Part shown: in pieces, positions 36,254 through 60,227 of the stretch
Numbering within the stretch: position 1 is the first letter of the stretch
How the letters are laid out: the number at the start of each line of letters is the position of its first letter
From: Alphaproteobacteria bacterium
Lineage (GTDB): Bacteria > Pseudomonadota > Alphaproteobacteria > GCA-2731375
Direction: 5' to 3'
Length of the DNA stretch: 64,000 nt
Assembly: GCA_965225945.1 (NCBI GenBank)
Contig: CBDDBZ010000026.1
Span: 32,001-96,000, forward strand
The notes under the pieces: model-generated
Databases searched by the model: none
What the model saw: only the letters and a program-made list of their open reading frames with translations
What the model was told of the DNA's origin: nothing
Made by a program: the position numbers and the translations under genes

Positions 36254-37311
36254 GGCACGAGGCCGCCTACGAGGGCGTCGAGATCATACCCGCGCGCGAG
36301 GCGCATCGGCTGGACGAGGCGGCGCTCGAGGGCTATCTCCGGGCGTTCGTCGAAGGTTTTCGGGGCCCCCAGGTCGTGCGCCAATTCGAGGGTGGTCAAT
36401 CGAACCCGACCTATTTCCTGGAGGCGGGCGGACGGCACTATGTCATGCTAAAGAAGCCGCCGGGAAAGCTGCTGCCCTCGGCTCACGCGGTCGAGCGCGA
36501 ATACCGCGTCATCACCGCGCTTCGCGACACGCCCGTGCCGGTGCCCGAGACCTGTCTCCTCTGCGCGGACGAGAGCATCCTCGGCACGCCCTTCTTCGTG
36601 ATGTCGTATGTGCCGGGCCGGCTGCTGGTCGACCCGCGCCTCCAGAGCCTGGCGAAGGCGGATCGGATGCCGCTGCTGATGCATTTCGTCGAGTGCCTGG
36701 CCGCGCTCCACGGCGTCGACCATGAGCGAATTGGCCTCGCTGAATTCGGCCGGCCAGGGAACTACTATCGCCGGCAGTACGACCGCTGGGCCAAGCAGTA
36801 TCGCGCCTCGGAGACGGAAACGATTCCGGCGATGGACCGGCTGATCGCGTGGCTGCCGGACCGGATCCCCGAGACCGACGAGACCACCCTGGTGCACGGC
36901 GACTACAGAATTGGCAATTGTCTGGTCCACCCGAGCGAGCCACGCGTCGCCGCCGTGCTCGACTGGGAGCTCTCGACCCTCGGCCATCCGCTGGCCGACC
37001 TCGCCTATACCTGCATGGTCTATCACGCCGATACCGGGCGGACCGGAAACTTTCTGGAGCTCGACTTCGAGACGGCGGGGGTGCCGACGGAAGAGGAATT
37101 CGTCGGCCGCTATTGTGCACTCACTGGACGCGAGGGAATCGACGACTGGCCCTTCTACGTGGTCTTCGCCATCTTTCGCATCGCGGCAATCGTCCAGGGT
37201 GTCTACAAGCGCGGCCTCGACGGCATCTCCGCCTCGGCGCAATCGCTCGAGTTCAAGGACGTCTGCCGGCTCCGCGCCGAGCAGGCCTGGCGCCTGGTCG
37301 AGCGGATCTGA
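36250..37311 (+). CDS. APH-family phosphotransferase (ACAD10/LvaA-like), copy 2
   Basis: GGQSNPTY, LLPSAHAVEREY, HGDYRIGN, LDWELSTLG; ATGA overlap with copy 1. Confidence 0.9.
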   Translation: MRHEAAYEGVEIIPAREAHRLDEAALEGYLRAFVEGFRGPQVVRQFEGGQSNPTYFLEAGGRHYVMLKKPPGKLLPSAHAVEREYRVITALRDTPVPVPETCLLCADESILGTPFFVMSYVPGRLLVDPRLQSLAKADRMPLLMHFVECLAALHGVDHERIGLAEFGRPGNYYRRQYDRWAKQYRASETETIPAMDRLIAWLPDRIPETDETTLVHGDYRIGNCLVHPSEPRVAAVLDWELSTLGHPLADLAYTCMVYHADTGRTGNFLELDFETAGVPTEEEFVGRYCALTGREGIDDWPFYVVFAIFRIAAIVQGVYKRGLDGISASAQSLEFKDVCRLRAEQAWRLVERI

Positions 37312-43451: not shown

Positions 43452-43518
43452 GCCGAGGGGCGCGTGCAGCGGGAGCCGGCGTGCGCGTGTCGGCATTCGT
43501 TCAACTCACACCCGGCCT

Positions 43519-43543
43519 ACCCCCGAGACTCTCCGTAACATTA
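43519..43543 (+). other. Island-boundary motif 1 (XerD-arm-like)
   Basis: ACCCCCGAGACTCTCCGTAACATTA, 18/25 identical to 52071-52095. Confidence 0.5.
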
Positions 43544-43565
43544 TGGAAAGCTAAAGTGGTAATTG

Positions 43566-43644
43566 TTAAGCGTTGTCGGACACCTGCCGAGGCGCAGGGG
43601 TTGCATCCGGCGGACTGGATCGGCAGGTGTCGGACAACGCTTAA
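43566..43644. repeat. Terminal inverted repeat/hairpin, 25-bp arms (1 mismatch), 29-nt loop
   Basis: TTAAGCGTTGTCGGACACCTGCCGA ... TCGGCAGGTGTCGGACAACGCTTAA. Confidence 0.9.
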
Positions 43645-43916
43645 GGGAGGAAACCGCGGGCAGGACTAGGCTCGGCGGTGCGGCACGCTCGGTCTATGGG
43701 GATTTGCGAGCGGCGGGCCAGCTTTCTCGGGTGGCCGGCGCTGCTGGATGGCTCGGATCTGATTGGCGACGACACCGGCAGGGTGGTTTGATGGCGACTT
43801 CGGGTCGATGCCGGCGGGTCTCGCAGGTGGTTCCCTGCGCGCTCGATGGTGTTGCGGCGAGCGGGATCGTGGCCGCGGGTGAGCGGCGGCAATAGCGTTA
43901 TTCGAAGCGGTGTCGG

Positions 43917-46170
43917 TCATGCTGCCGTGGCCCTGGCCAGGGGCCGTGCACGGGGCGGGGCGCGTGGTTGGGCGCCGGCCTCGAAGCGCTCGATGACGAT
44001 CATACGGCCGCCGCACTGCGGGCAGGGCTCTGAGAGGGACGGCGGTTCGGTATCATCGTCACTCGCGGCATCGTCGGCCTCACTCTCCGGTGCCGGCATG
44101 GCAAGCAGTTCGCGGGCAAGGGAGATGTTGCGGGTGCGACCGCCGTTGGCGAAGAGGCCGTAATGGCGGATGCGGTGAAAGCCCGAGGGCAGGACATGGA
44201 GGAGGAAGCGGCGGATGAACTCGGGCACGGCCAGGGGCAAGGTCTTGTAGCGCTCGCGTCCTTTGCGCCGGTAGTCCTTGTACTTGAAGATGACGCCTTG
44301 GCTGTCGCAGCTGACCAGGCGGCTGTTCGAGATGGCGACACGGTGGGTGTAGCGGGAGAGATAGGCGAGCACGGCCTCTGGTCCGCCGAAGGGCGGCTTG
44401 GCGTAGACGACCCATTCTTGTTCCTGATTACGCACTAACCTCAGCCAACTTCAGGAGCCGATATGGCATGGGCGGCGTGCGCAGGGCATCGCGGCCGAGG
44501 GCTTCGATCATGTCGGCGAGCCGGTAGCGGCGGTTGTATCGGTACTGGAACGCCACCAGTTAGCGCGGCACATGCTTGGGTCGGATCGCATGGTAGGTAC
44601 CGCGCAGGGTGTTTTTGAGGTTGCCGAGGGTGGTGTTGACCCATTTGAAGGCGGGCACGGCGACGGCCCCGGGTCCGGAGCCAGTGGGTATCGGATGGTG
44701 CGCACAGCCTTGCGCGGTGACCGCGGTGAAGCAGCCGAGCCCATCGCTGACAACCGTCGCCAGCGGGCTCAGGTCGCGCTTGGCCATCTTGGCGATCTCG
44801 CTCTTGCGGAAGCCCTTGACGCGGCGGAGCTTGATGCGCACGGGCTGGCCCTCCGCCGTGGTCTGGACGGCGGCGACGAACGGCGTCTTGCCCGGCGCGC
44901 CTCGGCCGCGCTTGGCCCCGGAACGCCGGCCGCCGAGGTAGGCATCGTCCATCTCCACCCGCCCGGTGAGCGGCAATTTGGCATCGCGCTCGAGCATGGA
45001 TTGCATCAGTTTCTGCTTGATCTTCCAGGCCGTGGTCTGGGTGACGCCGAGCCGGCGGCCGAGTTCGATGGAGGAGATCCCCTTCTTCGATTGGGTCATG
45101 TGATAGATCGCCGAAAACCACAGGGTCAGCGCCAGCTTGGTCGCGTGGAAGAGCGTGCCGGCGGTCAGCGAGACTTGATGACGGCAGGCGGCGCATTGGT
45201 AGAGCTTGCGGCCGGCGATCTCGCAATGGCGCGTGGCGCCGCATCGGGGGCAGGAGAAGCCCTCCGGCCAACGCCAGCGGAACAGGGCCTCGCGGCACTG
45301 CTCCTCGGTGCCGTACATTTCACGGAAACGCGGCTCGCTGAGCCCCTTCTGGAACTGAACCTTGTTGCGTGGCATCGTGAATCTCCTGTAAAACCACCAA
45401 AGGTTCATGATTTGTACCACACCTGGTCCGGCTGAGTGACGTGCGTAATCAGGTTCTTGTTTGCGCATCGGTGCGAGGAAGACACGGAAGGCCGCCGGCT
45501 CGGCGAGGCTGGTGTGGTCGGTGAAGAACTTCAGGCGCCCTGCCTCGTGGGCGGCGAGGAGCTTCTCGATGAAGAGGCGGCGGAAGAGGCGCGAGAGCAC
45601 GCGGACGGGCAGGAAGAAGCCGGGCCGGCAAGAGATCCAACTGCTACCGTCAGGTGAGATTCCGCCACCCGGCACGATCATGTGGATGTGGGGATGGTGG
45701 GTCATGGCCGAGCCCCAGGTGTGGAGCACGGCGGTGATGCCGATCTTGGCGCCGAGATGCTTGGGATCGGCGGCGATGGTGAGCATGGTCTCGGCGCTCG
45801 CCTTGAACAGGATATCGTAGATCACCGACTTGTTCTGATAGGCGATGTCGGCGATCGCCGCTGGCAGGGTGAAGACGAGATGGTAGTAGGGGACGGAGAG
45901 CAGTTCGGCCTCTCGCGCCGCCAGCCATTCGCGCGCGACCTGGCCTTGGCATTTGGGACAATGGCGGTTGCGACAGGAATTGTAGGCGATGTGGTTCTGC
46001 CCGCAGTCCTCGCAGGCCGCGACATGACCGCCGAGCGCGGCGGTGCGGCAACACTCGATCGCCGACATGACCTTCAGTTGGCCGAGGCTCAGACGACCGG
46101 CCCGGGCCCGACGGAAGCCGGGCCCGTGGTCGCGGAAGATGTCCTGGACCTCGAGCGCGGGACGCGGCAC
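43917..46170 (-). pseudogene. IS91-type HUH transposase, split by IS1595
   Basis: Identical to the intact 52507-53721 gene on both sides of the insertion. Confidence 0.92.
44423..45453 (-). mobile_element. IS1595-family element (IS1595 subgroup), transposase inactivated
   Basis: IR CCTGATTACGCAC; 8-bp TSD TTCTTGTT; transposase 45375-44428 (zinc ribbon, VEMDDAY, SDG) with premature TAA at 44560. Confidence 0.92.
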
Positions 46171-46183
46171 CGAGGCCGCCGGC

Positions 46184-47089
46184 TCACTTCGGCGGCTTGC
46201 GCTTGGTCTTGGGCGTCGGCGGCTCGAGCAGGTCCAGTGGGCTCTTGGCGCGCCGCAAGGTGGTGCTGGCGACCTGGGTGTAGTGAGCCGTGGTCTCCAG
46301 CTTCTTGTGCCCCAGTAGAACCTGGATCACGCGGATGTCGACGCCCTGTTCGAGGAGATGGGTGGCGAAGCAGTGGCGCAGCGTGTGAAGCGAGATCCGC
46401 TTCTCGATCCCCGCCCCCGCCTTGGCGCCATCGAGGGCGCGACGGAGCTGGCGGGTGGTCAACGGGTTGACCGGGTTCTGGCCTGGAAACAGCCAACCGC
46501 CGGGCAGCATCACGCCGCGGGCGCGGCCAAGCAACCACCAGACCCTGAGCTGCTCGACGGCGCGATCCGAGAGCATGGCGTAGCGATCTCGGCGGCCCTT
46601 ACCTTGCTCGATGCGAAGCGTCTTGCGGTTGCTGTCGATGTCCGGGACCTTGAGATGGACCACCTCCGAAGCGCGCAGGCCGGCGCCATAGGCCAGCGAA
46701 AAGGCCGCCTTGTATTTGGGACCGGGGGCGGCATCGAGAAGCCGCGCCATTTCCTCGACGCTCAGGATCACCGGCAGCTTGCGCGGCATTGCCACCGTCG
46801 TCATGCCGATCTCGGCGTCGCCTCGGCCGAGCGTGACGCCGAAGAAGAACCGCAATGCCGAGACCGCCGCGTTCATCGTCGTCGCCGATGCGCCTGCTTT
46901 GCGCATATGCACTTGATAGCGCCTGAGATCCTCCGCCTCCGCCCGATCCGGAGAGCGTGCGAGAAAGTCGGAAAAGCCGGCCACCGCACTGATGTAGCCG
47001 CGCTGCGTGTTGGCACTGAAGCCGCGAAGCACCATGTCGTCGATCATGCGCTGGCGCAGCGGGCTGATGGTCTTGTCACTATCGGTCAT
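46184..47089 (-). CDS. Tyrosine recombinase (intact)
   Basis: YGAGLRASE, GKGRRDR, HTLRHCFATHLLE, LLGH, AHY catalytic set; N-terminal SAM-like domain. Confidence 0.94.
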   Translation of the reverse strand: MTDSDKTISPLRQRMIDDMVLRGFSANTQRGYISAVAGFSDFLARSPDRAEAEDLRRYQVHMRKAGASATTMNAAVSALRFFFGVTLGRGDAEIGMTTVAMPRKLPVILSVEEMARLLDAAPGPKYKAAFSLAYGAGLRASEVVHLKVPDIDSNRKTLRIEQGKGRRDRYAMLSDRAVEQLRVWWLLGRARGVMLPGGWLFPGQNPVNPLTTRQLRRALDGAKAGAGIEKRISLHTLRHCFATHLLEQGVDIRVIQVLLGHKKLETTAHYTQVASTTLRRAKSPLDLLEPPTPKTKRKPPK

Positions 47090-47249
47090 GGGTCTGCTCC
47101 CGTGTTGCGTGAGCTTCGGAACTCCAAACCTCAACACAGGATCGACCCATCCGTTACGCCACCGACCTCACCGCCCGGCACCACGAACTACCGCTGAAAG
47201 CGGTTTCGTTCGTTGACCTGAAACGGACATAAGCCGCAGCCGTGAGAAT

Positions 47250-49002
47250 TTATGGCGGTAGTCCCACCACGCCGAGCGCTTCGCTTAAGGGCACGGCGAG
47301 CAATTCGTGAATATCGAATGCGGCGCACAATCCGCTGATGGTAAAGCCCGGCTCCAGCTCAAGGACGCGCTCGGCGGCGGACTTAGCCGCGTCGAGCCGC
47401 CCAAGCTTCGCGTGCGTTGCCGCCAGCAGAAAGTGCGCCGAGCTCCAATAGGGATTTGCCTGGAAAACCTTGTGCGCCGCCTCGGCCGCCGCCTCGTAAT
47501 CGCCGCGCTGAAAATGGCCGAGGGTAATCGAGAACCATGGGGAGTAGTTCATCGGATCGAACGGGCTCCAACGGAGCGCTCGCTCGCCCCATTCGATGCC
47601 GCGGTCCGCATCACCGGCAAGGACCATCACGACGCTGCCTAAGTTGTAGGAAAGCGCGCATGACGGGCTGAGGGCCAGCGCCGCCTCGAAGGCCTGGCGC
47701 GCGGCTTCGCGGTCGTGCGCGACCAAGCCGATGGCAAAGCCTCCGAGCGACAGCGCGATGGCGTCGTCGCGCCCGTGGGCGATCGCCGCATGGGCGTGGC
47801 GGGTCGCCCCGAGGCGGTTCTCCTCGCGCGCGCCGCCGCGCGCGAACAGGATTTCATGGCTCCAGGCGGCAAATCCGTGCGCCAGCGCGTAATTGGGTTC
47901 CATGTTGAGCGCACTCTCGAAGAAGCGGCACCGCCTTCGCGGCCCCGTCCGGCATCGCCGGATAGACGTGTGGGATGGCGCGGAGCACGAGGTCATAGGC
48001 GTCGAGACTGTCAGGCCGTTTACGCTTGACGCGCTCAATCTCCGCCTGGCGCAAGCTCGGCTCGATAGCGGCGACCACGCTCATCGTGAGCTCGTCCTGG
48101 ATCGCGAAGACGTCGTCAAGAGTGCGGTCGTAACGATCCGCCCAGACGTGCCGGCCAGTTTCCGCTTCGATGAGCTGACCGGTGACGCGCACGCGACTTG
48201 ACGCCTTGCGTACGCTCCCCTCGAGAATGTAGCGCACGCCCAGCTCACGCCCGGCCTGCTTCACGTCCACGGATTCACCCTTGTAGGCGAAGCTCGAGTT
48301 GCGCGCGATCACGAAGAGCCACTTGATGCGCGCGAGGCCGGTAATAATGTCCTCGGTGAGTCCATCGGAAAAATACTCCTGCTCCGGATCGCCCGACATG
48401 TTGTCGAACGGCAGCACCGCTATTGAGGGCTTGTCGGGGAGAGTGCGTGGCTCTTCATGGGGCACAGTGTCGCCAGCTACAGCACCCCTATCCGGGCGCC
48501 ATTGCCACACCCGCACCGGGCGATCGATGTTCTTGAGCTCTTGCTCGCCCAAGTCCTCTAACGCCAAGTCGACGCGGTCGCGTACTTGCTCGTGGACGCT
48601 ACCGGAGACGCAGATGCCGCCCGGCCGCGCCAGTCCCTCCAAACGCGCCGCCACGTTGACCCCGTCGCCCTGGATGTCGTCACCGTCGATGACCACGTCG
48701 CCCAGATTGATGCCGACGCGGAACTCGATCCGTTTGTTTTCCGGCAGGTCCGCATTGTGTTCGGTTAACGCTACCTGCGTCTCCACGGCAGCATGAATAG
48801 CATCCACGACGCTCGCGAACTCCGCCAGCATACCGTCGCCCATGAGTTTGACGATCCGCCCATGGTGCTCAGCGATCTTGGGATCGATGAGATCGGCACG
48901 CAGGGCCTTGAGAGCCGCTATCGTGCCTTCCTCATCGGCCCTGATCAGCCGCGAATAGCCGACCACGTCAGCGGCCATGATGGCGGCGAGACGACGCTCC
49001 AT
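47250..49002 (-). pseudogene. Class III adenylate/guanylate cyclase-TolB N-TPR protein with a 1-nt frameshift near 47920
   Basis: RRLAAIMAADVVGYSRL, GDGVNVAARLE, PSIAVLPFDNMS, TPR tail in the other frame. Confidence 0.88.
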
Positions 49003-49366
49003 CGAAATCCTCCCTGGCGGGGAGCTTAGCGGCAAAGGACAGGAGAATCTATGCGCGCTGGCGACGGGGCCGAATGGTCACCTCGCCCTGACGGGGAAGG
49101 TATCCCTGAATCCCGACGCTCCGCCGATCGACGCACCGACCCGTCTCGTCTGGTCGGGGCCTGTACACAATCGACCATGCGAGCGACACGACGGGCCCTC
49201 CAACGAGATCTCCGCGACACCTTCGTATTTGGCTCACGACGCTCCGAACGACATGCATGCCGGCCATGGTGGGGGCCTCGGCTGGTGATGCGCGCGGCAG
49301 GCTTGCCAGCCCCGGGCGATTGGCCCAGGTTCTATGCCGTCCATGGACCAGGCGGGGGCCCGTCCG

Positions 49367-49855
49367 ATGACCACCAAGAGCCGCATCCACTCCTTCCATC
49401 CCGAGAGCTACGGCGACGCCAAGTCCGCCGTCCGCTCGCTGCTGCATGCCTCGGGCGGCGAGGCCCGCGCGGCGGCGCGGTGCCGGGTTTCCAAGTCGAC
49501 CCTCTCGGAATATGGCAACCCCGCGCACCCCGAGCGGCATATGCCGCTCGACGTGGTCGAGGCGCTGGAAGCCGCGGCCGGCGAGATGCCGGTGACCGGC
49601 CATCTCGCCGCCGCCCATGATTGCCTGCTGCTGCGCTTGCCGGCCCCGGACGTGGCGAGGGAATGGCTCGCGCACCTGACCAGCATCGGCAAGGAGGCGG
49701 GCGACGTCTTCAACCACGCGGGCGCGTTCCTGGCCGACGACGGCGATATCGACGCCGAGGAGGCGCCGGTGCTGCTGCGGGAGTTGGACGAGCTATTGGC
49801 CGCCGTCGCCGCGATGCGGACCGCCGTCCGCCAACGGATGCCGCCGAGCTCGTAG
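49367..49855 (+). CDS. Phage-regulator (CII-like) HTH protein
   Basis: HTH-like RVSKSTLSEY, MPLDVVEALE, KEAGDV..LADDGDID.EE pattern seen in phage regulatory proteins. Confidence 0.55.
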   Translation: MTTKSRIHSFHPESYGDAKSAVRSLLHASGGEARAAARCRVSKSTLSEYGNPAHPERHMPLDVVEALEAAAGEMPVTGHLAAAHDCLLLRLPAPDVAREWLAHLTSIGKEAGDVFNHAGAFLADDGDIDAEEAPVLLRELDELLAAVAAMRTAVRQRMPPSS

Positions 49856-49863
49856 TCGCGCCC

Positions 49864-51147
49864 CTATTCCGCGATGCGCGGCACCACGTAGGGGCCCTCG
49901 GGGATCACCGCCAGGCGGTTGCAGCCGGCCCGCTGGATGGCGGCGGCGATGGTGGCGCTCAGGTCCTCGGTCATGGCCACGCCGGTCAGCTCCCGGTCCT
50001 CGCCCGCAAGGCCGTCGCTATAGAGATGGATGGTGCCGATGCGCATCGGCTTCAACTGCATCTCGGTCTGCCACTCGTCGATATCGGCATGGGCTTTGGC
50101 CTCGATTTCCTCCAGAAAGCGCTCCGGCCCGCCCGCGACCAGGCGGCGCTGCGCCTCGACATAGGGGGCTGAGCCGATGCCCTCGGCGCACTCCGACGCG
50201 ATGATCAGGTCGCCGCCGGGGCTGAGGATGTCCATCGGCGCCACCATGGCCTTCACGGTCTGATAGTAGGTCTTGTCGAGCGGATAGCCGGCGGCGCTGG
50301 TGAGGATGGTGGGAAAGCGCTCCGCCACCTCCACCTCGGCGTGCTCGCGGGCATGCGCCACCGCCAGGAGGTGGCTCTCCACGATCTCGCCGAAGTTGAC
50401 GAAGCAGAGCTCGCGATCCTCGGTGATCACGGTGTTGAGGGCGAGCGCGCCGCCCAGCATGCGCACGATCTCCAACTGCTCCTCGTGCAGCGGATTGCCG
50501 TCGAGCACGCAGTTGGCGGCGTTGGCGTGCTCCATGAAGCGGGCGGCGTGGAAGGTGGTGATGGTCTGGCTGTGCGCGACGCCGGGGGCGATCACCTTGC
50601 GGCCGCCGGAATAGCCGGCCATGAAGTGCGGCTCCACCAGGCCGGTGGCGATCTTCAGGTCGGCCTCCACCAGCCGGCGGTCGAGGCGGACCACGGTGCC
50701 CCGGCCCGAGGTGCGGCCGAGATCGACATGCGCGGAATCGTCGGTGGCGAAGTGGTTCTCCACCCGCACCTGGTTCAGCACCCAGGGATCGCCAACCAGT
50801 TCGGCAAGTTCCTCGCCCTCGTTCGGCCGATGCAGGCCGGTCGCCACCAGCACGGTGATGGCGTCGGCCGGCATGCCGGCGGCGATCAGGCGGCGGATCA
50901 GGATCCCCAGGAAGAGCCCGTTCGGCACCGGCCGGGTGATGTCGCAGATCAGGATGCAGGCGCTTTGGGCACCTCGGGCGAGCTGTTCCAAGGGCGGCGC
51001 GCCCACGGGCTCGGAGAGCGCGGCCTCGATCGCGCGCGGAGAATCGGCGAGCGTCGGCATGTCGCGCTTGGCGATCACGGTGACGTCCAGTCCCTCCGGC
51101 AGCTCGACCGGGAGCTTGCCCTTGCCATAGTTGATCTCGACCCGCAT
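49864..51147 (-). CDS. Nickel-pincer-dependent lactate racemase (LarA) family protein
   Basis: DITRPVP, ATGLHR, EPHFMAGYSGGRK, GYPLD..YQTVK. Confidence 0.88.
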   Translation of the reverse strand: MRVEINYGKGKLPVELPEGLDVTVIAKRDMPTLADSPRAIEAALSEPVGAPPLEQLARGAQSACILICDITRPVPNGLFLGILIRRLIAAGMPADAITVLVATGLHRPNEGEELAELVGDPWVLNQVRVENHFATDDSAHVDLGRTSGRGTVVRLDRRLVEADLKIATGLVEPHFMAGYSGGRKVIAPGVAHSQTITTFHAARFMEHANAANCVLDGNPLHEEQLEIVRMLGGALALNTVITEDRELCFVNFGEIVESHLLAVAHAREHAEVEVAERFPTILTSAAGYPLDKTYYQTVKAMVAPMDILSPGGDLIIASECAEGIGSAPYVEAQRRLVAGGPERFLEEIEAKAHADIDEWQTEMQLKPMRIGTIHLYSDGLAGEDRELTGVAMTEDLSATIAAAIQRAGCNRLAVIPEGPYVVPRIAE

Positions 51148-51275
51148 CGCGCCCTCCGGATCTCGTCGCAACTCGGCGAGTATATCAACACTTGCCGCCC
51201 GAGGCATGGTGCCGCTTTCGCGCCGGCGGGTGGCGCGCTACCATCGCGGATGGCACGTTGAGGGGAGAAGCGACC

Positions 51276-52037
51276 ATGCGGCTCGCCCAGGATCAGCTCG
51301 AGCATTTCCGGCGAGAGGGCTATCTGCTCTCGAAGGGATTTTTGGAGGCCGAGGAGATCGCGCACCTCCGCGACTGCTACACGGAGATCGCAGCTCGGCT
51401 GCAGGCCGAGCAGGCGCTCGAGAATGTGCAGTCGGGCGACGATCGGGACGAGGATTTCCAGGTCTATCAGATTCGCACGGCGCATCTCCGCCACCCGATT
51501 TTCCGCATGCTGATCAACGATTCTCGCCTGCTGGACCTGGTGGAATGCCTGATCGGACCGGATATCCGCCTGATCCACTACCAGGGCCTCTACAAGCCGG
51601 CGGCGACCGGCGGCGCCGTCGGCTGGCACCAGGACAACTATTATTTCAACGTCGCGGGCGAGCGCACCGTCAGTGTCTGGATGGCGCTCGACGACGCAAC
51701 GATTGCGAACGGCTGCATGTGGTACCTGCCGGGCCGACACGGTGCGCGGATGGCGCACCAGCAACTCTGGGACAGCTCGGTCAAGAAGGGTTTCTATTTC
51801 GCCATTCCCGAACTCGACGAGACGGGCGCCGTGGCGGCGGAGGTGCCGGCGGGCGGCCTCGCCATCCATCACTGCCTGATGCCGCACCGCTCGTTGCACA
51901 ACCGGACCGACCGGCCACGCCGGGGCCTGGCGATGCACTTCATGGATGCCAAGGTGGCGGACCCGGAGATGCTGAAGCTTCTGCCGGAGGGCGCGACCCC
52001 GGTGCTGCGCCGCGCCCGGACCGAGGGAGCGGGCTGA
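51276..52037 (+). CDS. Phytanoyl-CoA dioxygenase (PhyH) family Fe/2OG oxygenase
   Basis: KP..GWHQDNYY, VWMALDDAT..NGC, H..N.TDRPRR. Confidence 0.9.
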   Translation: MRLAQDQLEHFRREGYLLSKGFLEAEEIAHLRDCYTEIAARLQAEQALENVQSGDDRDEDFQVYQIRTAHLRHPIFRMLINDSRLLDLVECLIGPDIRLIHYQGLYKPAATGGAVGWHQDNYYFNVAGERTVSVWMALDDATIANGCMWYLPGRHGARMAHQQLWDSSVKKGFYFAIPELDETGAVAAEVPAGGLAIHHCLMPHRSLHNRTDRPRRGLAMHFMDAKVADPEMLKLLPEGATPVLRRARTEGAG

Positions 52038-52070
52038 ACGACGCCCGGACGTGGTCGCGATGTCCGGAGC

Positions 52071-52095
52071 ACCCTCGGGATTTGCCATAATATTA
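52071..52095 (+). other. Island-boundary motif 2 (XerD-arm-like)
   Basis: ACCCTCGGGATTTGCCATAATATTA; ATTTGCCATAA matches 9/11 to the reverse complement of the E. coli dif XerD arm. Confidence 0.55.
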
Positions 52096-52100
52096 GTCGA

Positions 52101-52147
52101 TACAAACAGATTACAAACAGAGTACAAACAGATTTGATACAAACAGA
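52101..52147 (+). repeat. Four exact TACAAACAGA direct repeats
   Basis: Starts at 52101, 52112, 52123 and 52138. Confidence 0.92.
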
Positions 52148-52506
52148 GTCCTGTGTTAAGCGTTGTCGGACACCTGCCGAGGCGCAGGGGTTGCATCCGG
52201 CGGACTGGATCGGCAGGTGTCGGACAACGCTTAAGGGAGGAAACCGCGGGCAGGACTAGGCTCGGCGGTGCGGCACGCTCGGTCTATGGGGATTTGCGAG
52301 CGGCGGGCCAGCTTTCTCGGGTGGCCGGCGCTGCTGGATGGCTCGGATCTGATTGGCGACGACACCGGCAGGGTGGTTTGATGGCGACTTCGGGTCGATG
52401 CCGGCGGGTCTCGCAGGTGGTTCCCTGCGCGCTCGATGGTGTTGCGGCGAGCGGGATCGTGGCCGCGGGTGAGCGGCGGCAATAGCGTTATTCGAAGCGG
52501 TGTCGG

Positions 52507-53721
52507 TCATGCTGCCGTGGCCCTGGCCAGGGGCCGTGCACGGGGCGGGGCGCGTGGTTGGGCGCCGGCCTCGAAGCGCTCGATGACGATCATACGGCCG
52601 CCGCACTGCGGGCAGGGCTCTGAGAGGGACGGCGGTTCGGTATCATCGTCACTCGCGGCATCGTCGGCCTCACTCTCCGGTGCCGGCATGGCAAGCAGTT
52701 CGCGGGCAAGGGAGATGTTGCGGGTGCGACCGCCGTTGGCGAAGAGGCCGTAATGGCGGATGCGGTGAAAGCCCGAGGGCAGGACATGGAGGAGGAAGCG
52801 GCGGATGAACTCGGGCACGGCCAGGGGCAAGGTCTTGTAGCGCTCGCGTCCTTTGCGCCGGTAGTCCTTGTACTTGAAGATGACGCCTTGGCTGTCGCAG
52901 CTGACCAGGCGGCTGTTCGAGATGGCGACACGGTGGGTGTAGCGGGAGAGATAGGCGAGCACGGCCTCTGGTCCGCCGAAGGGCGGCTTGGCGTAGACGA
53001 CCCATTCTTGTTTGCGCATCGGTGCGAGGAAGACACGGAAGGCCGCCGGCTCGGCGAGGCTGGTGTGGTCGGTGAAGAACTTCAGGCGCCCTGCCTCGTG
53101 GGCGGCGAGGAGCTTCTCGATGAAGAGGCGGCGGAAGAGGCGCGAGAGCACGCGGACGGGCAGGAAGAAGCCGGGCCGGCAAGAGATCCAACTGCTACCG
53201 TCAGGTGAGATTCCGCCACCCGGCACGATCATGTGGATGTGGGGATGGTGGGTCATGGCCGAGCCCCAGGTGTGGAGCACGGCGGTGATGCCGATCTTGG
53301 CGCCGAGATGCTTGGGATCGGCGGCGATGGTGAGCATGGTCTCGGCGCTCGCCTTGAACAGGATATCGTAGATCACCGACTTGTTCTGATAGGCGATGTC
53401 GGCGATCGCCGCTGGCAGGGTGAAGACGAGATGGTAGTAGGGGACGGAGAGCAGTTCGGCCTCTCGCGCCGCCAGCCATTCGCGCGCGACCTGGCCTTGG
53501 CATTTGGGACAATGGCGGTTGCGACAGGAATTGTAGGCGATGTGGTTCTGCCCGCAGTCCTCGCAGGCCGCGACATGACCGCCGAGCGCGGCGGTGCGGC
53601 AACACTCGATCGCCGACATGACCTTCAGTTGGCCGAGGCTCAGACGACCGGCCCGGGCCCGACGGAAGCCGGGCCCGTGGTCGCGGAAGATGTCCTGGAC
53701 CTCGAGCGCGGGACGCGGCAC
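52507..53721 (-). CDS. IS91-type HUH (Y2) transposase (intact)
   Basis: Zn-binding CRT..CxxC..SCRNRHCPKC, LHTWG..HPHIH (HUH), YLSRYTHR (Y2), IRHYG. Confidence 0.93.
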   Translation of the reverse strand: MPRPALEVQDIFRDHGPGFRRARAGRLSLGQLKVMSAIECCRTAALGGHVAACEDCGQNHIAYNSCRNRHCPKCQGQVAREWLAAREAELLSVPYYHLVFTLPAAIADIAYQNKSVIYDILFKASAETMLTIAADPKHLGAKIGITAVLHTWGSAMTHHPHIHMIVPGGGISPDGSSWISCRPGFFLPVRVLSRLFRRLFIEKLLAAHEAGRLKFFTDHTSLAEPAAFRVFLAPMRKQEWVVYAKPPFGGPEAVLAYLSRYTHRVAISNSRLVSCDSQGVIFKYKDYRRKGRERYKTLPLAVPEFIRRFLLHVLPSGFHRIRHYGLFANGGRTRNISLARELLAMPAPESEADDAASDDDTEPPSLSEPCPQCGGRMIVIERFEAGAQPRAPPRARPLARATAA

Positions 53722-54590
53722 CGAGGCCGCCGGCTCACTTCGGCGGCTTGCGCTTGGTCTTGGGCGTCGGCGGCTCGAGCAGGTCCAGTGGGCTCTTGGC
53801 GCGCCGCAAGGTGGTGCTGGCGACCTGGGTGTAGTGAGCCGTGGTCTCCAGCTTCTTGTGCCCCAGTAGAACCTGGATCACGCGGATGTCGACGCCCTGT
53901 TCGAGGAGATGGGTGGCGAAGCAGTGGCGCAGCGTGTGAAGCGAGATCCGCTTCTCGATCCCCGCCCCCGCCTTGGCGCCATCGAGGGCGCGACGGAGCT
54001 GGCGGGTGGTCAACGGGTTGACCGGGTTCTGGCCTGGAAACAGCCAACCGCCGGGCAGCATCACGCCGCGGGCGCGGCCAAGCAACCACCAGACCCTGAG
54101 CTGCTCGACGGCGCGATCCGAGAGCATGGCGTAGCGATCTCGGCGGCCCTTACCTTGCTCGATGCGAAGCGTCTTGCGGTTGCTGTCGATGTCCGGGACC
54201 TTGAGATGGACCACCTCCGAAGCGCGCAGGCCGGCGCCATAGGCCAGCGAAAAGGCCGCCTTGTATTTGGGACCGGGGGCGGCATCGAGAAGCCGCGCCA
54301 TTTCCTCGACGCTCAGGATCACCGGCAGCTTGCGCGGCATTGCCACCGTCGTCATGCCGATCTCAGCGTCGCCTCGGCCGAGCGTGACGCCGAAGAAGAA
54401 CCGCAATGCCGAGACCGCCGCGTTCATCGTCGTCGCCGATGCGCCTGCTTTGCGCATATGCACTTGATAGCGCCTGAGATCCTCCGCCTCCGCCCGATCC
54501 GGAGAGCGTGCGAGAAAGTCGGAATGAGTCGGACCCGATTTCCTTGGACACAGAATTGGCTTAATCGAAGTGTCCAAGGAGGACCGGAAC

Positions 54591-55001
54591 ATGACCGACA
54601 ATTTTGAGAACAAAGTTGCTGTTGATGGGCCTGTGGTAAACGAGGGCGAGCTTGGCTCGTCCACGTTTTCCCCGGGCCAGGTTTCGCCGGCAGGCCCGCT
54701 GGGACTTGGCCAGCGGTGGACGGTGACGCGCAAGCGTGAGGTTGCCCTGCGGCTTTTGCGTGGCGAGCCGGTGGAACTTTTGTCGCGGCAGTTGGGCGTG
54801 GAGATTTTCCGGCTCGAGCAGTGGCGTGAGAAGGCGATCGCCGGGATCGATGCCTCGCTCAAGGAACGCAAGGGCGATCCGGTAAAGGCGGAACTGGACA
54901 TCGCCATGAAGCGGATCGGGGAGTTGATCATGCAGGTGGAACTGCTGGAGGCCAAGACGGAGACGTCCGGCCCTTTGGGGCGGCGGAGGTCGCGGCGATG
55001 A
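54591..55001 (+). CDS. IS OrfA (HTH)
   Basis: RWTVTRKREVALRLLRGE..LSRQLGV; AGGAGG RBS. Confidence 0.8.
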   Translation: MTDNFENKVAVDGPVVNEGELGSSTFSPGQVSPAGPLGLGQRWTVTRKREVALRLLRGEPVELLSRQLGVEIFRLEQWREKAIAGIDASLKERKGDPVKAELDIAMKRIGELIMQVELLEAKTETSGPLGRRRSRR

Positions 55002-55909
55002 GTGCCGCCACCTCTCCCGGCACGGGTTTGGCCTACGGCCTCCAGCGGGTCTGTGCGGCCTGGGGTTTTGCCCGTTCCTCGTTCTACGCCATGAAATCCC
55101 GGCAGCAGGCCACCGCTGAGCGCCCACCAGCAAAGCGCCGGGGACCGAAGCCCTCGATCTCGGACGAGGCTCTGCTGGTGGCCATCGAGGCCGACCTGGA
55201 GGCATCCCCCTGGGAGGGCGAGGGACACCGCAAGGTCTGGGCTCGGCTTCGGGTCTGTCGTGGCATCCGTGTTTCCCGCAAGCGGGTGCTCCGGGTGATG
55301 CGCGAGAACAACCTGCTCTCGCCCCATCGCTGCCGCCGCCGTGGCGGAAATCCCCATGTCGGTGAGATCATCACCCATGCCCCCAACCTCATGTGGGGCA
55401 CGGACGGCGTTCGGGTGTTCACGGTGGACGACGGCTGGGGCTGGATATTCACCGCCATCGAGCATTGGAACGCCGAGTGCGTCGGCTGGCATGTGTGCAA
55501 GCGAGGCGACCGCTTCGCCGCCCTTCAGCCGATCTCCATGGGGCTTGCGAGGCTGTATGCCTCGACCTCCGCCGGTGCGGCGCGGGGGCTGGCCTTGCGG
55601 ATGGATCACGGCTCCCAGTATCTGTCGGACCACTTCACCAACCAGATCAAGTTCTGGGGCATCCAGCCGTCCTACGCCTTCGTCGAACAGCCCCAGACCA
55701 ACGGCGTCGCCGAGAGGTTCAATCGCACGCTCAAGGAACAGATCATCCATGGCCGCATCTACCGCAACATCGCGGAGCTGCGGAACGCCGTCCGCGGGTT
55801 CGTCGAACAGTACAATGCCCAGTGGATCGTGGAGAAGAACGGCTACCTGAGCCCCGCTCAAGCTCGTCAGGCGTGGCACACCGCGATGTCACTCAGGCCC
55901 GCCGCATGA
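54998..55909 (+). CDS. IS OrfB, integrase-core DDE transposase
   Basis: WGTD, MDHGSQY, NGVAERFNRTLKEQ. Confidence 0.9.
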   Translation: MSAATSPGTGLAYGLQRVCAAWGFARSSFYAMKSRQQATAERPPAKRRGPKPSISDEALLVAIEADLEASPWEGEGHRKVWARLRVCRGIRVSRKRVLRVMRENNLLSPHRCRRRGGNPHVGEIITHAPNLMWGTDGVRVFTVDDGWGWIFTAIEHWNAECVGWHVCKRGDRFAALQPISMGLARLYASTSAGAARGLALRMDHGSQYLSDHFTNQIKFWGIQPSYAFVEQPQTNGVAERFNRTLKEQIIHGRIYRNIAELRNAVRGFVEQYNAQWIVEKNGYLSPAQARQAWHTAMSLRPAA

Positions 55910-56347
55910 GACAAACTTGTGTCCAAGGAACCGGGTGCGATACACGAGAAAGTCGGAAAAGCCGGCCACCGCACTGATGTAGCCGCGCTGCGTGTTGGCA
56001 CTGAAGCCGCGAAGCACCATGTCGTCGATCATGCGCTGGCGCAGCGGGCTGATGGTCTTGTCACTATCGGTCATGGGTCTGCTCCCGTGTTGCGTGAGCT
56101 TCGGAACTCCAAACCTCAACTCAGGATCGACCCATCCGTTACGCCACCGACCTCACCGCCCGGCACCACGAACTACCGCTGAAAGCGGTTTCGTTCTATG
56201 TCCTCGTAGCCGACCAAGAAGGGTCTCTGGCGGCGGCGAGATCGCCGGTGACACCCGGCGGCCTGCGCGTTATGGTCCGTCCCTTGGACTCCATCAACCC
56301 CGGGGCGTAAACTCGTGCCAACCTGACCGAATTAGGAGAGTACCCCC

Positions 56348-56475
56348 GTGGCCGAACGCGAAGTACTACGGAAACTCACAGCAATCCTTGCCACCGATGT
56401 AGTCGGCTACAGCCGGCTCATGGAGGCGGACGTGCCCGGCACGCTCGCCCAGATGAAGGCGCACCGGCTGGAACG
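56348..56475 (+). pseudogene. 5' fragment of a class III adenylate cyclase gene
   Basis: RKLTAILATDVVGYSRLMEAD..GTLA, then similarity ends. Confidence 0.75.
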
Positions 56476-56755: not shown

Positions 56756-57833
56756 CGTCCCTATCCGGTTAAGGCAGGCAGCGCTCCCTGCGATTGTATA
56801 CCGTCGACCAGTTCCCTGTAGGTGATGGTCGGTCGGGTCATGGCGCGGTGCAACACGAAATCGGCAAGGTCGAAGATGCGTTTGCGCCGGTTGAAGCGGT
56901 AGTTCCATTCCCGGACGTAGCGCGGCAAATGCTTGGCGCTCACCCCGTGGTAGGTTCCGTTGAGCCACGTCTTCACGTTGGAAAACAGGACATGGACGAC
57001 CGGCATGAGCTGCTCGGCGTTCTTGCCTTGGCCTTGAACGACGGGCTGGTGGCGATAAGTATCGCCAAGCTTGGCGTAACTCTTGAAAGCGTCGCTGTCG
57101 AGGCGGCTTCCCGGCTTCACCGAGGCGCGCACGAAGTCGCCCAACTCACGGGCGGTGGCCTCGGGCAGGATGGCGAGCCGCGCGGCGCCGGCGGCGAAGC
57201 CGCTCCCCTTGATGCCCTTGCCCGACCCGACCGGCCACTTCTCGACCGCCATCACCAACAGGCTCTTGTTCGGGTTGGAAAGCCCGCGCCCCCGGCTCTC
57301 CGGCTTGCCCCGCCCGCCGTAATAGCTCTCGTCGACCTCGACCAAGCCCTCCAGCGGGAACTCCGGGCGCTCCGTCAGGGCATGGCGCAGCTTGTGGGCC
57401 ATCAGCCAGGCGGTGTCGTAGCGCAGGCTCAACTCTCGCGACAGAAACAGCGCCGAGACCCCGCGCTTGTCGCGCCCCATCCACCACGCCGCCAGGAACC
57501 ATTTGCGCAACGGTGTGCGGGTGCGGTGGAAGACCGTGCCCGCGGTCACCGATTCCTGATGGCCGCAACCGGCGCATTCGAAGACCCGCGGCCGCGTCTT
57601 CAATTGGTAGTTCCGCCTCTCGCCGCAACGCGCGCAGACGTAGCCTTGCGGCCAGCGCAGCCGAGCCAGCGCCTCGATGCAGTCCGCCTCCGATCCATGG
57701 CGTTCGAGGAACTCCAATATCCCGCTCATCGAATAGTCCTCCAAAAGCTCCAGCCGATGCGATCAGCCTACACCTCTATGGAGAACATATCAAGAACATT
57801 CGGAGCCCATCCTGCTTTGACCAGATAGGGACG
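56756..57833 (-). mobile_element. IS1595-family element (ISSod11-type ends), apparently intact
   Basis: IR CGTCCCTATCCGGTTAAGGCAGG / CCTGCTTTGACCAGATAGGGACG; 8-bp TSD CTACCTTA. Confidence 0.92.
56761..57744 (-). CDS. IS1595 transposase
   Basis: CARC..CAGC zinc ribbon, VEVDESY, SDA, NVK, YVREWNYRFNRR. Confidence 0.92.
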   Translation of the reverse strand: MEDYSMSGILEFLERHGSEADCIEALARLRWPQGYVCARCGERRNYQLKTRPRVFECAGCGHQESVTAGTVFHRTRTPLRKWFLAAWWMGRDKRGVSALFLSRELSLRYDTAWLMAHKLRHALTERPEFPLEGLVEVDESYYGGRGKPESRGRGLSNPNKSLLVMAVEKWPVGSGKGIKGSGFAAGAARLAILPEATARELGDFVRASVKPGSRLDSDAFKSYAKLGDTYRHQPVVQGQGKNAEQLMPVVHVLFSNVKTWLNGTYHGVSAKHLPRYVREWNYRFNRRKRIFDLADFVLHRAMTRPTITYRELVDGIQSQGALPALTG

Positions 57834-57988: not shown

Positions 57989-58002
57989 GATTGAGCAACC
58001 TG

Positions 58003-59422
58003 TGTATCGCACCCGGTTCCTTGGACACAAGTTTGTCTCATGCGGCGGGCCTGAGTGACATCGCGGTGTGCCACGCCTGACGAGCTTGAGCGGGGCTCAG
58101 GTAGCCGTTCTTCTCCACGATCCACTGGGCATTGTACTGTTCGACGAACCCGCGGACGGCGTTCCGCAGCTCCGCGATGTTGCGGTAGATGCGGCCATGG
58201 ATGATCTGTTCCTTGAGCGTGCGATTGAACCTCTCGGCGACGCCGTTGGTCTGGGGCTGTTCGACGAAGGCGTAGGACGGCTGGATGCCCCAGAACTTGA
58301 TCTGGTTGGTGAAGTGGTCCGACAGATACTGGGAGCCGTGATCCATCCGCAAGGCCAGCCCCCGCGCCGCACCGGCGGAGGTCGAGGCATACAGCCTCGC
58401 AAGCCCCATGGAGATCGGCTGAAGGGCGGCGAAGCGGTCGCCTCGCTTGCACACATGCCAGCCGACGCACTCGGCGTTCCAATGCTCGATGGCGGTGAAT
58501 ATCCAGCCCCAGCCGTCGTCCACCGTGAACACCCGAACGCCGTCCGTGCCCCACATGAGGTTGGGGGCATGGGTGATGATCTCACCGACATGGGGATTTC
58601 CGCCACGGCGGCGGCAGCGATGGGGCGAGAGCAGGTTGTTCTCGCGCATCACCCGGAGCACCCGCTTGCGGGAAACACGGATGCCACGACAGACCCGAAG
58701 CCGAGCCCAGACCTTGCGGTGTCCCTCGCCCTCCCAGGGGGATGCCTCCAGGTCGGCCTCGATGGCCACCAGCAGAGCCTCGTCCGAGATCGAGGGTTTC
58801 GGTCCCCGGCGCTTTGCTGGTGGGCGCTCAGCGGTGGCCTGCTGCCGGGATTTCATGGCGTAGAACGAGGAACGGGCAAAACCCCAGGCCGCACAGACCC
58901 GCTGGAGGCCGTAGGCCAAACCCGTGCCGGGAGAGGTGGCGGCACTCATCGCCGCGACCTCCGCCGCCCCAAAGGGCCGGACGTCTCCGTCTTGGCCTCC
59001 AGCAGTTCCACCTGCATGATCAACTCCCCGATCCGCTTCATGGCGATGTCCAGTTCCGCCTTTACCGGATCGCCCTTGCGTTCCTTGAGCGAGGCATCGA
59101 TCCCGGCGATCGCCTTCTCACGCCACTGCTCGAGCCGGAAAATCTCCACGCCCAACTGCCGCGACAAAAGTTCCACCGGCTCGCCACGCAAAAGCCGCAG
59201 GGCAACCTCACGCTTGCGCGTCACCGTCCACCGCTGGCCAAGTCCCAGCGGGCCTGCCGGCGAAACCTGGCCCGGGGAAAACGTGGACGAGCCAAGCTCG
59301 CCCTCGTTTACCACAGGCCCATCAACAGCAACTTTGTTCTCAAAATTGTCGGTCATGTTCCGGTCCTCCTTGGACACTTCGATTAAGCCAATTCTGTGTC
59401 CAAGGAAATTGGGTCCGACTCA
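58003..59422 (-). mobile_element. IS3/IS481-like element, copy B (1420 bp; OrfA 58946-59356, OrfB 58038-58949)
   Basis: Near-identical to copy A; 14-bp TSD GATTGAGCAACCTG. Confidence 0.9.
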
Positions 59423-59472: not shown

Positions 59473-60227
59473 CTTGCCTATCCGGTTATCACCCACACCC
59501 ACTATATGTAGTGGGCACCCATTTTCCTGAGTAAAGCTCGGTGCAGGTCGAAGCGGAGATATCTCCGGCGATGCCGAGCAGGGACTCGGACGGCATTGTA
59601 GCGCCTTTTAGGCGACACTTTAGCGTGGTGGAAATCCTAATCATTGAGTCGGATTTGGCAAAACGCCACGTTGCATAAAGGACCGTCACTTCATTGAAAT
59701 TTATCTGAAATCGGAGGTGAACGACACCGATGGAATATTCCAGGAAATCAGAGCTTCATTGAATTGTAGGATTCGAGTGCCGGATTATTCACAAATAGCT
59801 CTGTGAACTGGTTTTCAAGTTCGCTCAATACGTCATATGAAGTAAACGGATTGAGGATCACGTTCTTGCGTGTCGCTTCGTCTTCGCTGCGACTCAAAAC
59901 GCGCAGGAGACTAACAGGCGCGGACGGGTTCTTCGCAACGATTCGTGCCAGCGCGTCGCTTTCTTCGACTAGTGCCGTCAATCGCTCAGACGATGTCGTT
60001 TCATCAGCAGCTTCCCGTCTGGCCGTGGGTTTCTTCGTTTTTCCCTTGGTCGCCACCGTTCCGTCCCCCGATGTTAAGTACGTGACGTGAATTAAACTCC
60101 GGTTCGGTTTTCAGAACAATCAAGAATTAGCCGGATCGCCTCCTCAATGCGCCTGCGCCGGCCCTTGCCTGCAGTCCAAGGAGACACACTACATATAGTG
60201 GGTGTGGGTGATAACCGGATAGGCAAG
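59473..60227. mobile_element. Non-autonomous IS1595-type cassette (MITE/MIC), 755 bp
   Basis: Perfect 41-bp TIRs, 8-bp TSD CAGTCATC, no transposase. Confidence 0.88.
59748..60056 (-). CDS. Small helical-repeat (LRV/HEAT-like) passenger protein
   Basis: VAKNPSAP..LL..LS..D..TR..V..NP repeat pattern; lower GC than host. Confidence 0.55.
   Translation of the reverse strand: MATKGKTKKPTARREAADETTSSERLTALVEESDALARIVAKNPSAPVSLLRVLSRSEDEATRKNVILNPFTSYDVLSELENQFTELFVNNPALESYNSMKL

Follow-up and report, generated by a model that had tools for sequence, protein, structure and literature searches.

Introduction

IS91-family insertion sequences move adjacent genes by read-through of their termination end, and it is because adjacent genes are moved that the landing site of these elements matters. 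Elements of the CTX/TLC type, which are not known to carry a recombinase of their own, depend on host XerCD at dif and use a dif-like site with two arms. According to one published account (PMC13181058), IS91 requires a CTTG or GTTC tetranucleotide in the flank beside its origin end (oriIS), and the termination end (terIS) of IS801 and IS1294 consists of a single subterminal palindrome beside a GTTC cleavage site. Insertion sequences that target repetitive extragenic palindromic (REP) sequences belong, in another account, to five families, IS3, IS110, IS4, IS256 and IS5, and not to IS91 (Tobes and Pareja, PMC1525189). Here, we analyse a stretch of 64,000 nucleotides (the window; positions 32001-96000 of contig C26) from the genome of an alphaproteobacterium (G000; 6.27 Mb in 39 contigs, with a stated assembly contamination of 5.58%) that holds two copies of an IS91-family element with a gene for a Xer-like tyrosine recombinase. 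Coordinates given without a contig name are those of the window. An initial annotation had read the locus as a candidate island-building system in which a XerD-arm-like 25-mer beside each copy serves as the docking site and class III cyclase genes are the cargo. We think it probable that the element instead lands, through recognition of its 3' flank, at the junction of two modules of a dispersed repeat, with the 25-mer as a passenger and the cyclases as neighbours.

Results

Two copies of an IS91-family element

Self-comparison of the window revealed two copies of one element, which measures 2609 bp after removal of secondary insertions. Copy A (43564..47211, minus strand) holds a secondary insert of 1031 bp that leaves the transposase gene in two pieces and the recombinase gene intact; copy B (52154..56196, minus strand) holds an IS3-family insert of 1421 bp that breaks the recombinase gene and leaves the transposase gene intact. 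Both are 99.9-100% identical to other genomic copies, of which a BLAST search of G000 found about 20, full or partial, with an intact transposase gene in seven. The transposase gene (52507-53721 in copy B, minus strand) encodes the Pfam domains Zn_Tnp_IS91 (4e-32) and Y2_Tnp (5.5e-68), and its product scores 427.6 bits against the NCBIfam model NF033538 (IS91 family transposase; cut-off 125). Directly upstream, in the same orientation and inside the element, lies the gene for the recombinase of 317 residues (46184..47137 in copy A, minus strand), which features a Phage_integrase domain (1e-40) and a SAM-like N domain and whose nearest NCBIfam models are those of XerA, IntI, XerD and XerC (1e-50 to 1e-55, every score below the cut-off).

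The two ends of the element are unlike each other; they have subterminal palindromes but lack terminal inverted repeats. One end bears a large hairpin with 25-bp arms (43566..43644), for which the predicted fold of the single-stranded DNA has -32.5 kcal/mol (z -8.6; none of 200 shuffles as good). At the opposite end (47165..47211, plus strand), a small subterminal palindrome (-9.4 kcal/mol, z -2.8) is followed by ...TTTCGTTC. By their likeness to published ends, the hairpin end is taken as oriIS and the other as terIS, with GTTC as its cleavage tetranucleotide. Judged by its genes and ends, the element can be classed as an IS91-family insertion sequence (HUH, two-tyrosine) of the ISMno24-like subgroup with a Xer-like recombinase gene; structurally nothing sets it apart, and it is an ordinary member of a catalogued subgroup. 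The initial annotation had correctly described the gene pair as common: 435 plasmid records with 60-90% similar DNA carry the features 'IS91 family transposase' and 'site-specific integrase', and the NCBI annotation reads, once, 'IS91-like element ISMno24 family transposase'.

Partial copies start at the hairpin end in every case (1-81, 1-260, 1-368). Copies made up of the hairpin end only (1-47, 1-81, 1-260, 1-368) often stand in tandem just ahead of a full copy, as in G000 (C38:203234, C39:252595/252932, C31:10312/11154), in the sister species G002 (L129, L139) and in G001 (L132), and solo hairpins of 81 bp are also present.

The 25-mers belong to a dispersed intergenic repeat

The two 25-mers (43519-43543 and 52071-52095) are identical at 18 of 25 positions, with transitions accounting for six of the seven differences, just as the initial annotation had described. 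When the 25-mer was searched genome-wide with up to six mismatches, 25 matches were obtained, mostly without an element nearby and all within a longer conserved sequence. The 25-mers are the best-conserved block of an intergenic repeat of about 125 bp, hereafter module Y, and their likeness is homology and not chance, because both lie in one repeat family. The Y beside copy A (43477..43563, plus strand), whose 3' side is cut by the element, was matched by nhmmer at C26:75477-75559 (model positions 11-90, E 3.4e-11), and the diverged Y beside copy B (52052..52110, plus strand) at C26:84052-84110 (model positions 31-89, E 5.8e-6). An intact Y reads ...ATGTCGG..TTCGC..CGTCTGGTGTACCCCCAAGACTC.CCGTAA.ATTAGC..GCGCTAAC.GGAGAAT GTTGACCC.....GGACAT.

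A profile of about 125 bp detected 41 Y copies in G000 (nhmmer, E<=0.01) and a sequence-only covariance model detected 52, most of them free of any element, so that the 25-mer does not mark an island boundary as had been proposed; together Y covers about 0.1% of the genome. The covariance model also found 38 copies in G002, five in G001, and ten, seven and five in G014, G017 and G015, which represent another genus of the same family. No IS91-like transposase was detected at E<=1e-30 in G014, G015, G017, G003, G010 or G008, all of which bear Y. As Y is present in genomes without a detected IS91-like transposase, it is a host-lineage repeat independent of the element and, as far as this distribution of sequences indicates, native to this bacterial lineage. 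By a rough gene call based on GC3, Y is mostly found shortly downstream of a gene in the same orientation or in the space between two convergent genes, and, as for REP sequences and bacterial interspersed mosaic elements, its many dispersed intergenic copies are common to related genomes irrespective of the insertion sequence.

A second module, X, presumably hairpin-rich and with inverted repeats that are obvious by eye, combines with Y into mosaic repeats; it starts with nTTGGCTA, and nhmmer gives 50 matches to it. The fold of one Y copy was no better than those of shuffles. Where the repeat is intact, the 3' end of Y stands before the X start (...CATTAG-N7-CTAACGGAAAAT), and the TTGACCC..GGACAT that follows Y looks like a short form of the X start.

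The 25-mer had been likened to the XerD arm of dif. Scored against the XerD-arm 11-mer supplied by the initial annotation, the copy B sequence matches at nine of 11 positions, and 22 other family members match at only two to seven. Nor does Y resemble a two-arm dif site: no 11-(6-8)-11 dyad rose above shuffles in 24 sequences, the best being 6-8/11 with at least 46 of 200 shuffles equal to it.

Other identities for Y fared no better. That Y is the true end of a longer element was rejected, because elements that are 99.9% identical have differing Y copies next to them (18/25), and because most Y are element-free. A miniature derivative of the element is unsupported, given dissimilar ends and the presence of Y in genomes without a detected IS91-like transposase; comparison of Y with the element interior gave no significant similarity (best local score 11, equalled by 168 of 200 shuffles), and a more ancient origin of this kind is conceivable. 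When arrays of Y were considered as possible cassette ends, adjacent copies within 20 kb proved to be co-oriented in 13 of 17 pairs in G000 and seven of nine in G002, with clustering estimated at only about twice the random expectation and an overall strand bias of 34:18.

A fixed insertion point at the junction of two repeat modules

Of 24 hairpin-end junctions that were collected, about eight join the element to partial copies of itself, to other insertion sequences or to contig ends and are uninformative on the target. Seven of the 24 lie in Y (C38:127365, C36:267613, C34:82250, C34:289527, C26:75564 for copy A, C26:84154 for copy B, and C9:34681), and these amount to six independent loci, because part of contig C9 duplicates window positions 45358-54524. 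At four loci the hairpin end lies 20-22 bp past the 25-mer. The motif lies outside the 2609-bp element at 20 bp from the hairpin end of copy A and 58 bp from that of copy B, as initially reported, and at 44 bp in the C9 duplicate; the two longer distances arise because a unit of 11 bp has been tandemly amplified between motif and element (52101..52134, plus strand, 3.1 copies beside copy B, with a different copy number on C9). Comparison of occupied with empty Y copies places the insertion between ...GGAGAAT and GTTGACCC..., with no target duplication, and past copy A the repeat resumes with the 3' half of the target (GTTGACC...GGACAT; 47212..47230, plus strand), in agreement with the flank consensus given below. 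Six insertions in about 0.1% of the genome are therefore far beyond chance. Site-specific docking at a preferred point beside this motif is real and statistically strong, and in this respect the initial annotation is supported. Most of the 41-52 motif copies stand without an element.

Element copies outside Y mostly abut module X. Since the 3' end of Y also stands before the X start, landing generally takes place at the Y/X junction. Related elements point to the same place. A second IS91-like element in G000 (about 2642 bp, about 83% identical) ends in ...GCGATTTAGTGC, which is followed by TATGGCTA/CTTGGCTA of module X in three copies, and its hairpin end stands exactly after Y in one copy (...GACGGAGAATC); a third element variant abuts X at C29:100545. 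In G002, a relative with 76% identity starts exactly after a Y copy, a solo 81-bp hairpin follows another Y, and an element 99.8-100% identical to that of the window (C5:1415981-1418351) is followed by TATGGCTA. Core genes of G002 and G000 are about 80% identical, and the near-identity of the element despite this indicates recent transfer between the species.

The conserved flank lies past the GTTC end

Conservation is confined to one side of the insertion point. The 17 distinct flanks that follow the GTTC end have T at position +3 and G at +4 in 16 cases each and C at +6 in 15, from which the consensus [T/G][T/A]TG[G/A]C[C/T] is obtained. No consensus is seen, across the 24 junctions, in the four bases that precede the hairpin end. 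Since the only flank conserved across sites is 3' of the insertion point, recognition therefore lies there. The 25-mer is probably a passenger, because it is on the side that is not conserved among sites; the proposal that these motifs are docking sites thus stands as regards the fixed insertion point beside them at six loci, and fails in that the conserved signal is on the opposite side of that point.

About 10-20 bases further, a GG[AT]CA box is found in five of the 17 flanks, compared with 1.85% of 11,007 background TTGRCY sites, an enrichment of about 16-fold for a motif picked post hoc, after the data had been seen; in total, G000 holds 11,011 TTGRCY sites. The looser pattern TG[AG]C[CT]C..G[GA][AT]CAT was rejected as a definition of the target, as its 46 sites are mostly genic and only two fall in annotated Y. 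The start of a short open reading frame at the target, with a Shine-Dalgarno sequence plus NTG, was likewise dropped, as relatives also show CTG there.

With one genome scanned per species, at least 448 related loci were found whose transposase is 63-73% identical. Gene layout was checked in the best 80 of these, and 77 of them have the recombinase gene immediately ahead of the transposase gene; two of the other three leave no room for it on the contig. In six other genomes, comparison of copy pairs delimited elements of 2.55-2.67 kb whose last four bases are GTTC, GTCC or GTGC. By our reading of the list, nnTG[G/A]C comes next in about 24 of 39 readable far ends, and smaller groups continue with TTCGGCCG or TTCCACC. 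A near-identical target of 17 bases, TGACCCTGAA.GGAC, recurs in two metagenome-assembled genomes (L022 and L038) and in a Bradyrhizobium plasmid. Several related elements begin with the same four bases that open their far flank (TTCG/TTCG, TTGG/TTGG, ATGA/ATGA), and TGTG against nnTG is a similar pairing of element start and far flank. Relatives also form tandem head-to-tail copies. The Bradyrhizobium plasmid copies were too diverged from each other to serve as a set for defining ends.

Cyclase genes beside the element

As the initial annotation had stated, a cyclase gene and a cyclase fragment lie beyond the far ends of the two copies. The class III cyclase gene past copy A (47250..49035, minus strand; Guanylate_cyc and TPR domains) is convergent with the repeat, and its coding sequence is spread over two overlapping frames (47854-49035 and 47250-48038), owing to a frameshift or a sequencing error. 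The N-terminal fragment past copy B (56339..56473, plus strand) starts 143 bp beyond the terIS end and was matched by tblastn at C26:88339-88473 with 51% identity. On the hairpin side, a PEP_mutase gene ends at 43451 near copy A and a PhyH gene at 52037 near copy B (Pfam).

In G000, which has 44 cyclase-domain matches, a cyclase lies within 1.5 kb past five of 22 far ends, and each of these five is a Y site; three of the five cyclases are co-oriented and start 110-143 bp away, and two are convergent. An empty Y stands 74 bp upstream of a cyclase at C35:212653. Because the flanks differ entirely while the elements are 99.9% identical, and because an empty Y can lie beside a cyclase, the cyclases are not co-mobilised as the cargo they had been taken for. 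Cyclase paralogues stand beside some of the Y copies, and insertion of the element came afterwards. A role for Y itself as a cyclase promoter or leader was rejected: only about four of 52 copies precede a cyclase, and by the rough gene call the downstream gene is co-oriented in 14 of 52.

Comparison with the syntenic locus of G002 shows the homologue of the PEP-mutase gene, then 476 bp and the homologue of window 49299-49843, with no Y, element or cyclase between them. Window region 43452-49298 is thus not at the syntenic place in G002 and the segment is accessory, as had been suspected, which does not show that the element brought it or its cyclase.

Secondary insertions and other users of the repeat

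The 1031-bp element within copy A (44423..45453) has terminal inverted repeats of 24 bp and is flanked by an 8-bp duplication (44415-44422 and 45454-45461); its open reading frames have no Pfam or NCBIfam match. It sits at the same position (852-859) in at least nine IS91-type copies, where it breaks the transposase gene, the other copies being on C37, C38 (two), C34 (two), C39, C9, C31 and C20. Either the composite spread with help in trans from intact copies, or the position is a very strong hot spot.

The IS3-family insertion sequence of 1421 bp within copy B (54525..55945, plus strand; rve and HTH_21) has a second, inverted copy at 58002-59422, and the two are 99.9% identical. They bracket 2056 bp comprising the far end of copy B, the cyclase fragment and an IS1595-type transposase gene (56761-57744, minus strand), and the right flank of copy B may have been rearranged through this inverted pair. 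G002 also has a copy of the IS3-family element, with 92% identity.

The segment duplicated between contig C9 and window 45358-54524 is 99.4% identical over 49507-54524, and C9 carries an additional piece of 224 bp matching window 59473-59696. By our arithmetic, the cyclase-TPR gene of C9 is only about 85% identical to its counterpart in the window. The C9 duplicate may come from a second strain, in line with the contamination estimate for the assembly. Elsewhere in the window, self-comparison showed a direct repeat of about 600 bp (35360-35944 and 36424-37008, 75% identical) and a short tandem duplication (24897-24986).

Other mobile DNA uses the same repeats. An IS110-family element, whose transposase of 350 residues starts MTMAHFVGLDVS, is inserted at AATGTCGG^CT(T/A)TCG, a site found within the 5' part of Y as well as in X when X is read as its reverse complement. 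This makes it the second mobile element to use the mosaic repeat site-specifically; copies of it in G000 lie outside the window at C21:~100.1k, C33:~104.8k, C34:~289.6k, C37:~341.4k, C24:~96.8k, C38:~275k and C26:~9.3k. At least three further repeated sequences also have an end that adjoins the X start (...CCCCTATCCCGATC, ...CAACGGACAT and ...TTTTTCAACAGC); their sites fall in three groups (C9:30132, C38:209779 and C36:320110; C34:8748, C33:199213, C19:8691, C29:109787 and C37:331460; C38:229021, C33:194728 and C19:12416), and the Y/X junction may attract mobile DNA in general.

The small-palindrome end of the element, in turn, is abutted by the 5' end of a group II intron (GTGTGCCC...) at C38:212484 and C9:32073 of G000, with the last base of the element replaced, and in a Bradyrhizobium plasmid (L145:4117-4719) a group II intron maturase gene lies just past the same end of a related element. 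The terminator-like palindrome of the element may be a group II intron target.

Discussion

In the reading that we favour, the element would move by rolling-circle transposition through its HUH transposase, without target duplication, a mode of movement with which the family, the unlike ends, the absence of a duplication, the tandem copies of relatives and the truncations to the hairpin end all fit. Insertion occurs directly 5' of [T/G][T/A]TG[G/A]C[C/T], often with GG(A/T)CA about ten bases later. In the mosaic repeats, this target sequence is supplied by the X start or its short form TTGACCC..GGACAT following Y, which places the landing 20-22 bp past the 25-mer. The transposase rather than the recombinase would read the target, and the target may be nicked 5' of a sequence resembling the first 20 or so bases of the element's own hairpin end. 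The cyclase genes are simply frequent neighbours of some Y copies.

Several observations weigh against this reading. The resemblance between hairpin end (TGTTAAGCGTTGTCGGACA) and target (GTTGACCC....CGGACA) is modest, amounting to 17 of 27 positions by eye in one Y copy. The canonical IS91 tetranucleotide (GTTC or CTTG) was not seen beside oriIS in the 24 junctions, and either this subgroup reads its target differently or the origin and termination ends have been assigned the wrong way round. With 11,011 TTGRCY sites in the genome, the hexamer alone cannot explain six insertions in about 50 repeats, and selection against genic insertions would likewise enrich for intergenic repeats. A mechanism involving only the transposase does not account for the linkage of the recombinase gene (77 of 80 loci). 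Finally, the role of Y finds no explanation in known structured RNAs: eight copies had no Rfam match at E<=1, window positions 40000-62000 had none at gathering score, and no consensus fold emerged among 22 copies, so that Y as a structured RNA was rejected.

The linkage of the recombinase gene lends substance to a possible, if unlikely, alternative, in which the element's own Xer-like recombinase integrates a circle made by the HUH protein into the Y/X junction, with Y blocks, possibly including the 25-mer, as accessory sites and no part for host XerD. The constant place of the gene directly upstream of the transposase gene implies that it is under selection with the element, and the protein is closest to the models of XerA, the integron integrases and XerC/D. 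Further in its favour are the missing IS91 tetranucleotide, the fixed insertion point within a conserved sequence of about 125 bp, and the four bases shared by element start and far flank in some relatives, which fit a common crossover core. The hairpin end also begins with GTTAAGC and has the partner arm GCTTAAC, which we take to resemble the core and inverse-core consensus of integrons. Against integration by the recombinase, the order of these two 7-mers is opposite to that of attC, 17 of the 24 junctions have no Y on the left, meaning that Y blocks are not required, and the sole sequence common to nearly all sites is 3' of the insertion point. Similarity of Y to the element interior does not exceed that of shuffles (168/200), there is no duplicated core at the Y sites of this element, the ends look standard for the IS91 family (palindrome plus GTTC), and truncated copies all start at the hairpin end, as rolling-circle copying predicts. 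An extended version, to which we give little credence, divides the work between two enzymes: the HUH protein would peel off a single-stranded circle and the recombinase would join its folded hairpin (GTTAAGC...GCTTAAC) to the Y/X junction, making these junctions reusable, cassette-like landing pads for unrelated mobile elements.

The position of the insertions could also reflect survival and not recognition, a short motif of about TTGRCY being sufficient for insertion and the copies persisting where they fall in harmless intergenic repeats. The thousands of TTGRCY sites (11,011) and the several element copies at non-repeat sites are compatible with this, as is the presence in the same repeats of the IS110-family element and the ends of at least three other repeated elements, which a harmless zone would accumulate. 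Yet the exact position is repeated in six independent Y copies and in another species, the GG[AT]CA box is about 16-fold above background TTGRCY sites, and near-identical 17-base targets recur in unrelated genomes, and we regard survival as quite improbable. The full reading of the initial annotation, with a dif-related 25-mer, integration by host XerC/D together with the HUH protein and cyclases as island-building cargo, is scarcely credible and already contradicted by the family-wide comparison, for although the copy B 11-mer (9/11), the cyclases past five of 22 far ends and the absence of 43452-49298 from its syntenic place in G002 speak for it, the arm match falls to 2-7/11 in 22 other family members, no dyad exceeds shuffles in 24 sequences, the motif occurs about 50 times and mostly element-free, flanks beyond 99.9% identical copies are unrelated, the copy A cyclase is convergent while three others are co-oriented at 110-143 bp, one cyclase is preceded at 74 bp by an empty Y, and the duplicated loci share 99.4% identical flanks with cyclases only about 85% identical.

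Landing at the Y/X junction through the 3' flank would thus give a target rule unlike the textbook IS91 tetranucleotide. The genome studied here constitutes a natural data set that points to such a rule, as it brings together some 20 nearly identical copies, some 50 unoccupied target repeats and two further related elements at the same junction, along with a 100%-identical copy in the sister species; the recombinase gene is carried by hundreds of alphaproteobacterial copies. For annotation, the 25-mer is to be read neither as an island edge nor as a Xer site but as the mark of an intergenic repeat found throughout the lineage. The architecture, an IS91 transposase plus a recombinase, is already named in NCBI annotation. 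In the literature searched, with ISfinder/TnPedia and paper supplements outside its scope, neither the target used by this subgroup nor a role for its recombinase was found described, and the target rule and the shared Y/X landing junction appear to be undescribed.

Among known systems, integrons, in which attC recombines with attI, share with this element a folded palindrome at one end and insertion beside a GTT-containing site. They differ in that the 7-mer order is reversed relative to attC and that no integron platform is present here; the recombinase matches the first half only of the integron-integrase model TIGR02249 (2.9e-51, 174.7 bits, cut-off 265) and reaches 112.9 bits against NF011946 (cut-off 435). 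CTX/TLC-type elements are alike in their single-stranded or circular DNA intermediates and in the family of Xer-type recombinases, whereas the site described here is multi-copy and lacks a dyad, and the element has its own recombinase. REP-targeting insertion sequences and those of mosaic elements (IS1397, IS621, ISPpu9/10, ISRm22) likewise return to a fixed position in a multi-copy intergenic repeat; in contrast to REP sequences, module Y has no predicted hairpin, and insertion is at the junction of two modules.

With canonical IS91, IS801 and IS1294, the element has in common the HUH Y2 transposase, the lack of target duplication and a larger palindrome at the other end, and its single subterminal palindrome followed by GTTC is as in the terIS of IS801 and IS1294 (PMC13181058). 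Unlike that of IS91, its oriIS-side flank has no consensus and the conserved motif lies past the other end (PMC13181058); a recombinase gene also takes the place of orf121. The ISMno24-type IS91 elements show the same two-gene layout within about 2.6 kb, a recombinase followed by a transposase with Zn-ribbon and Y2 HUH domains, and likewise have different ends with subterminal palindromes.

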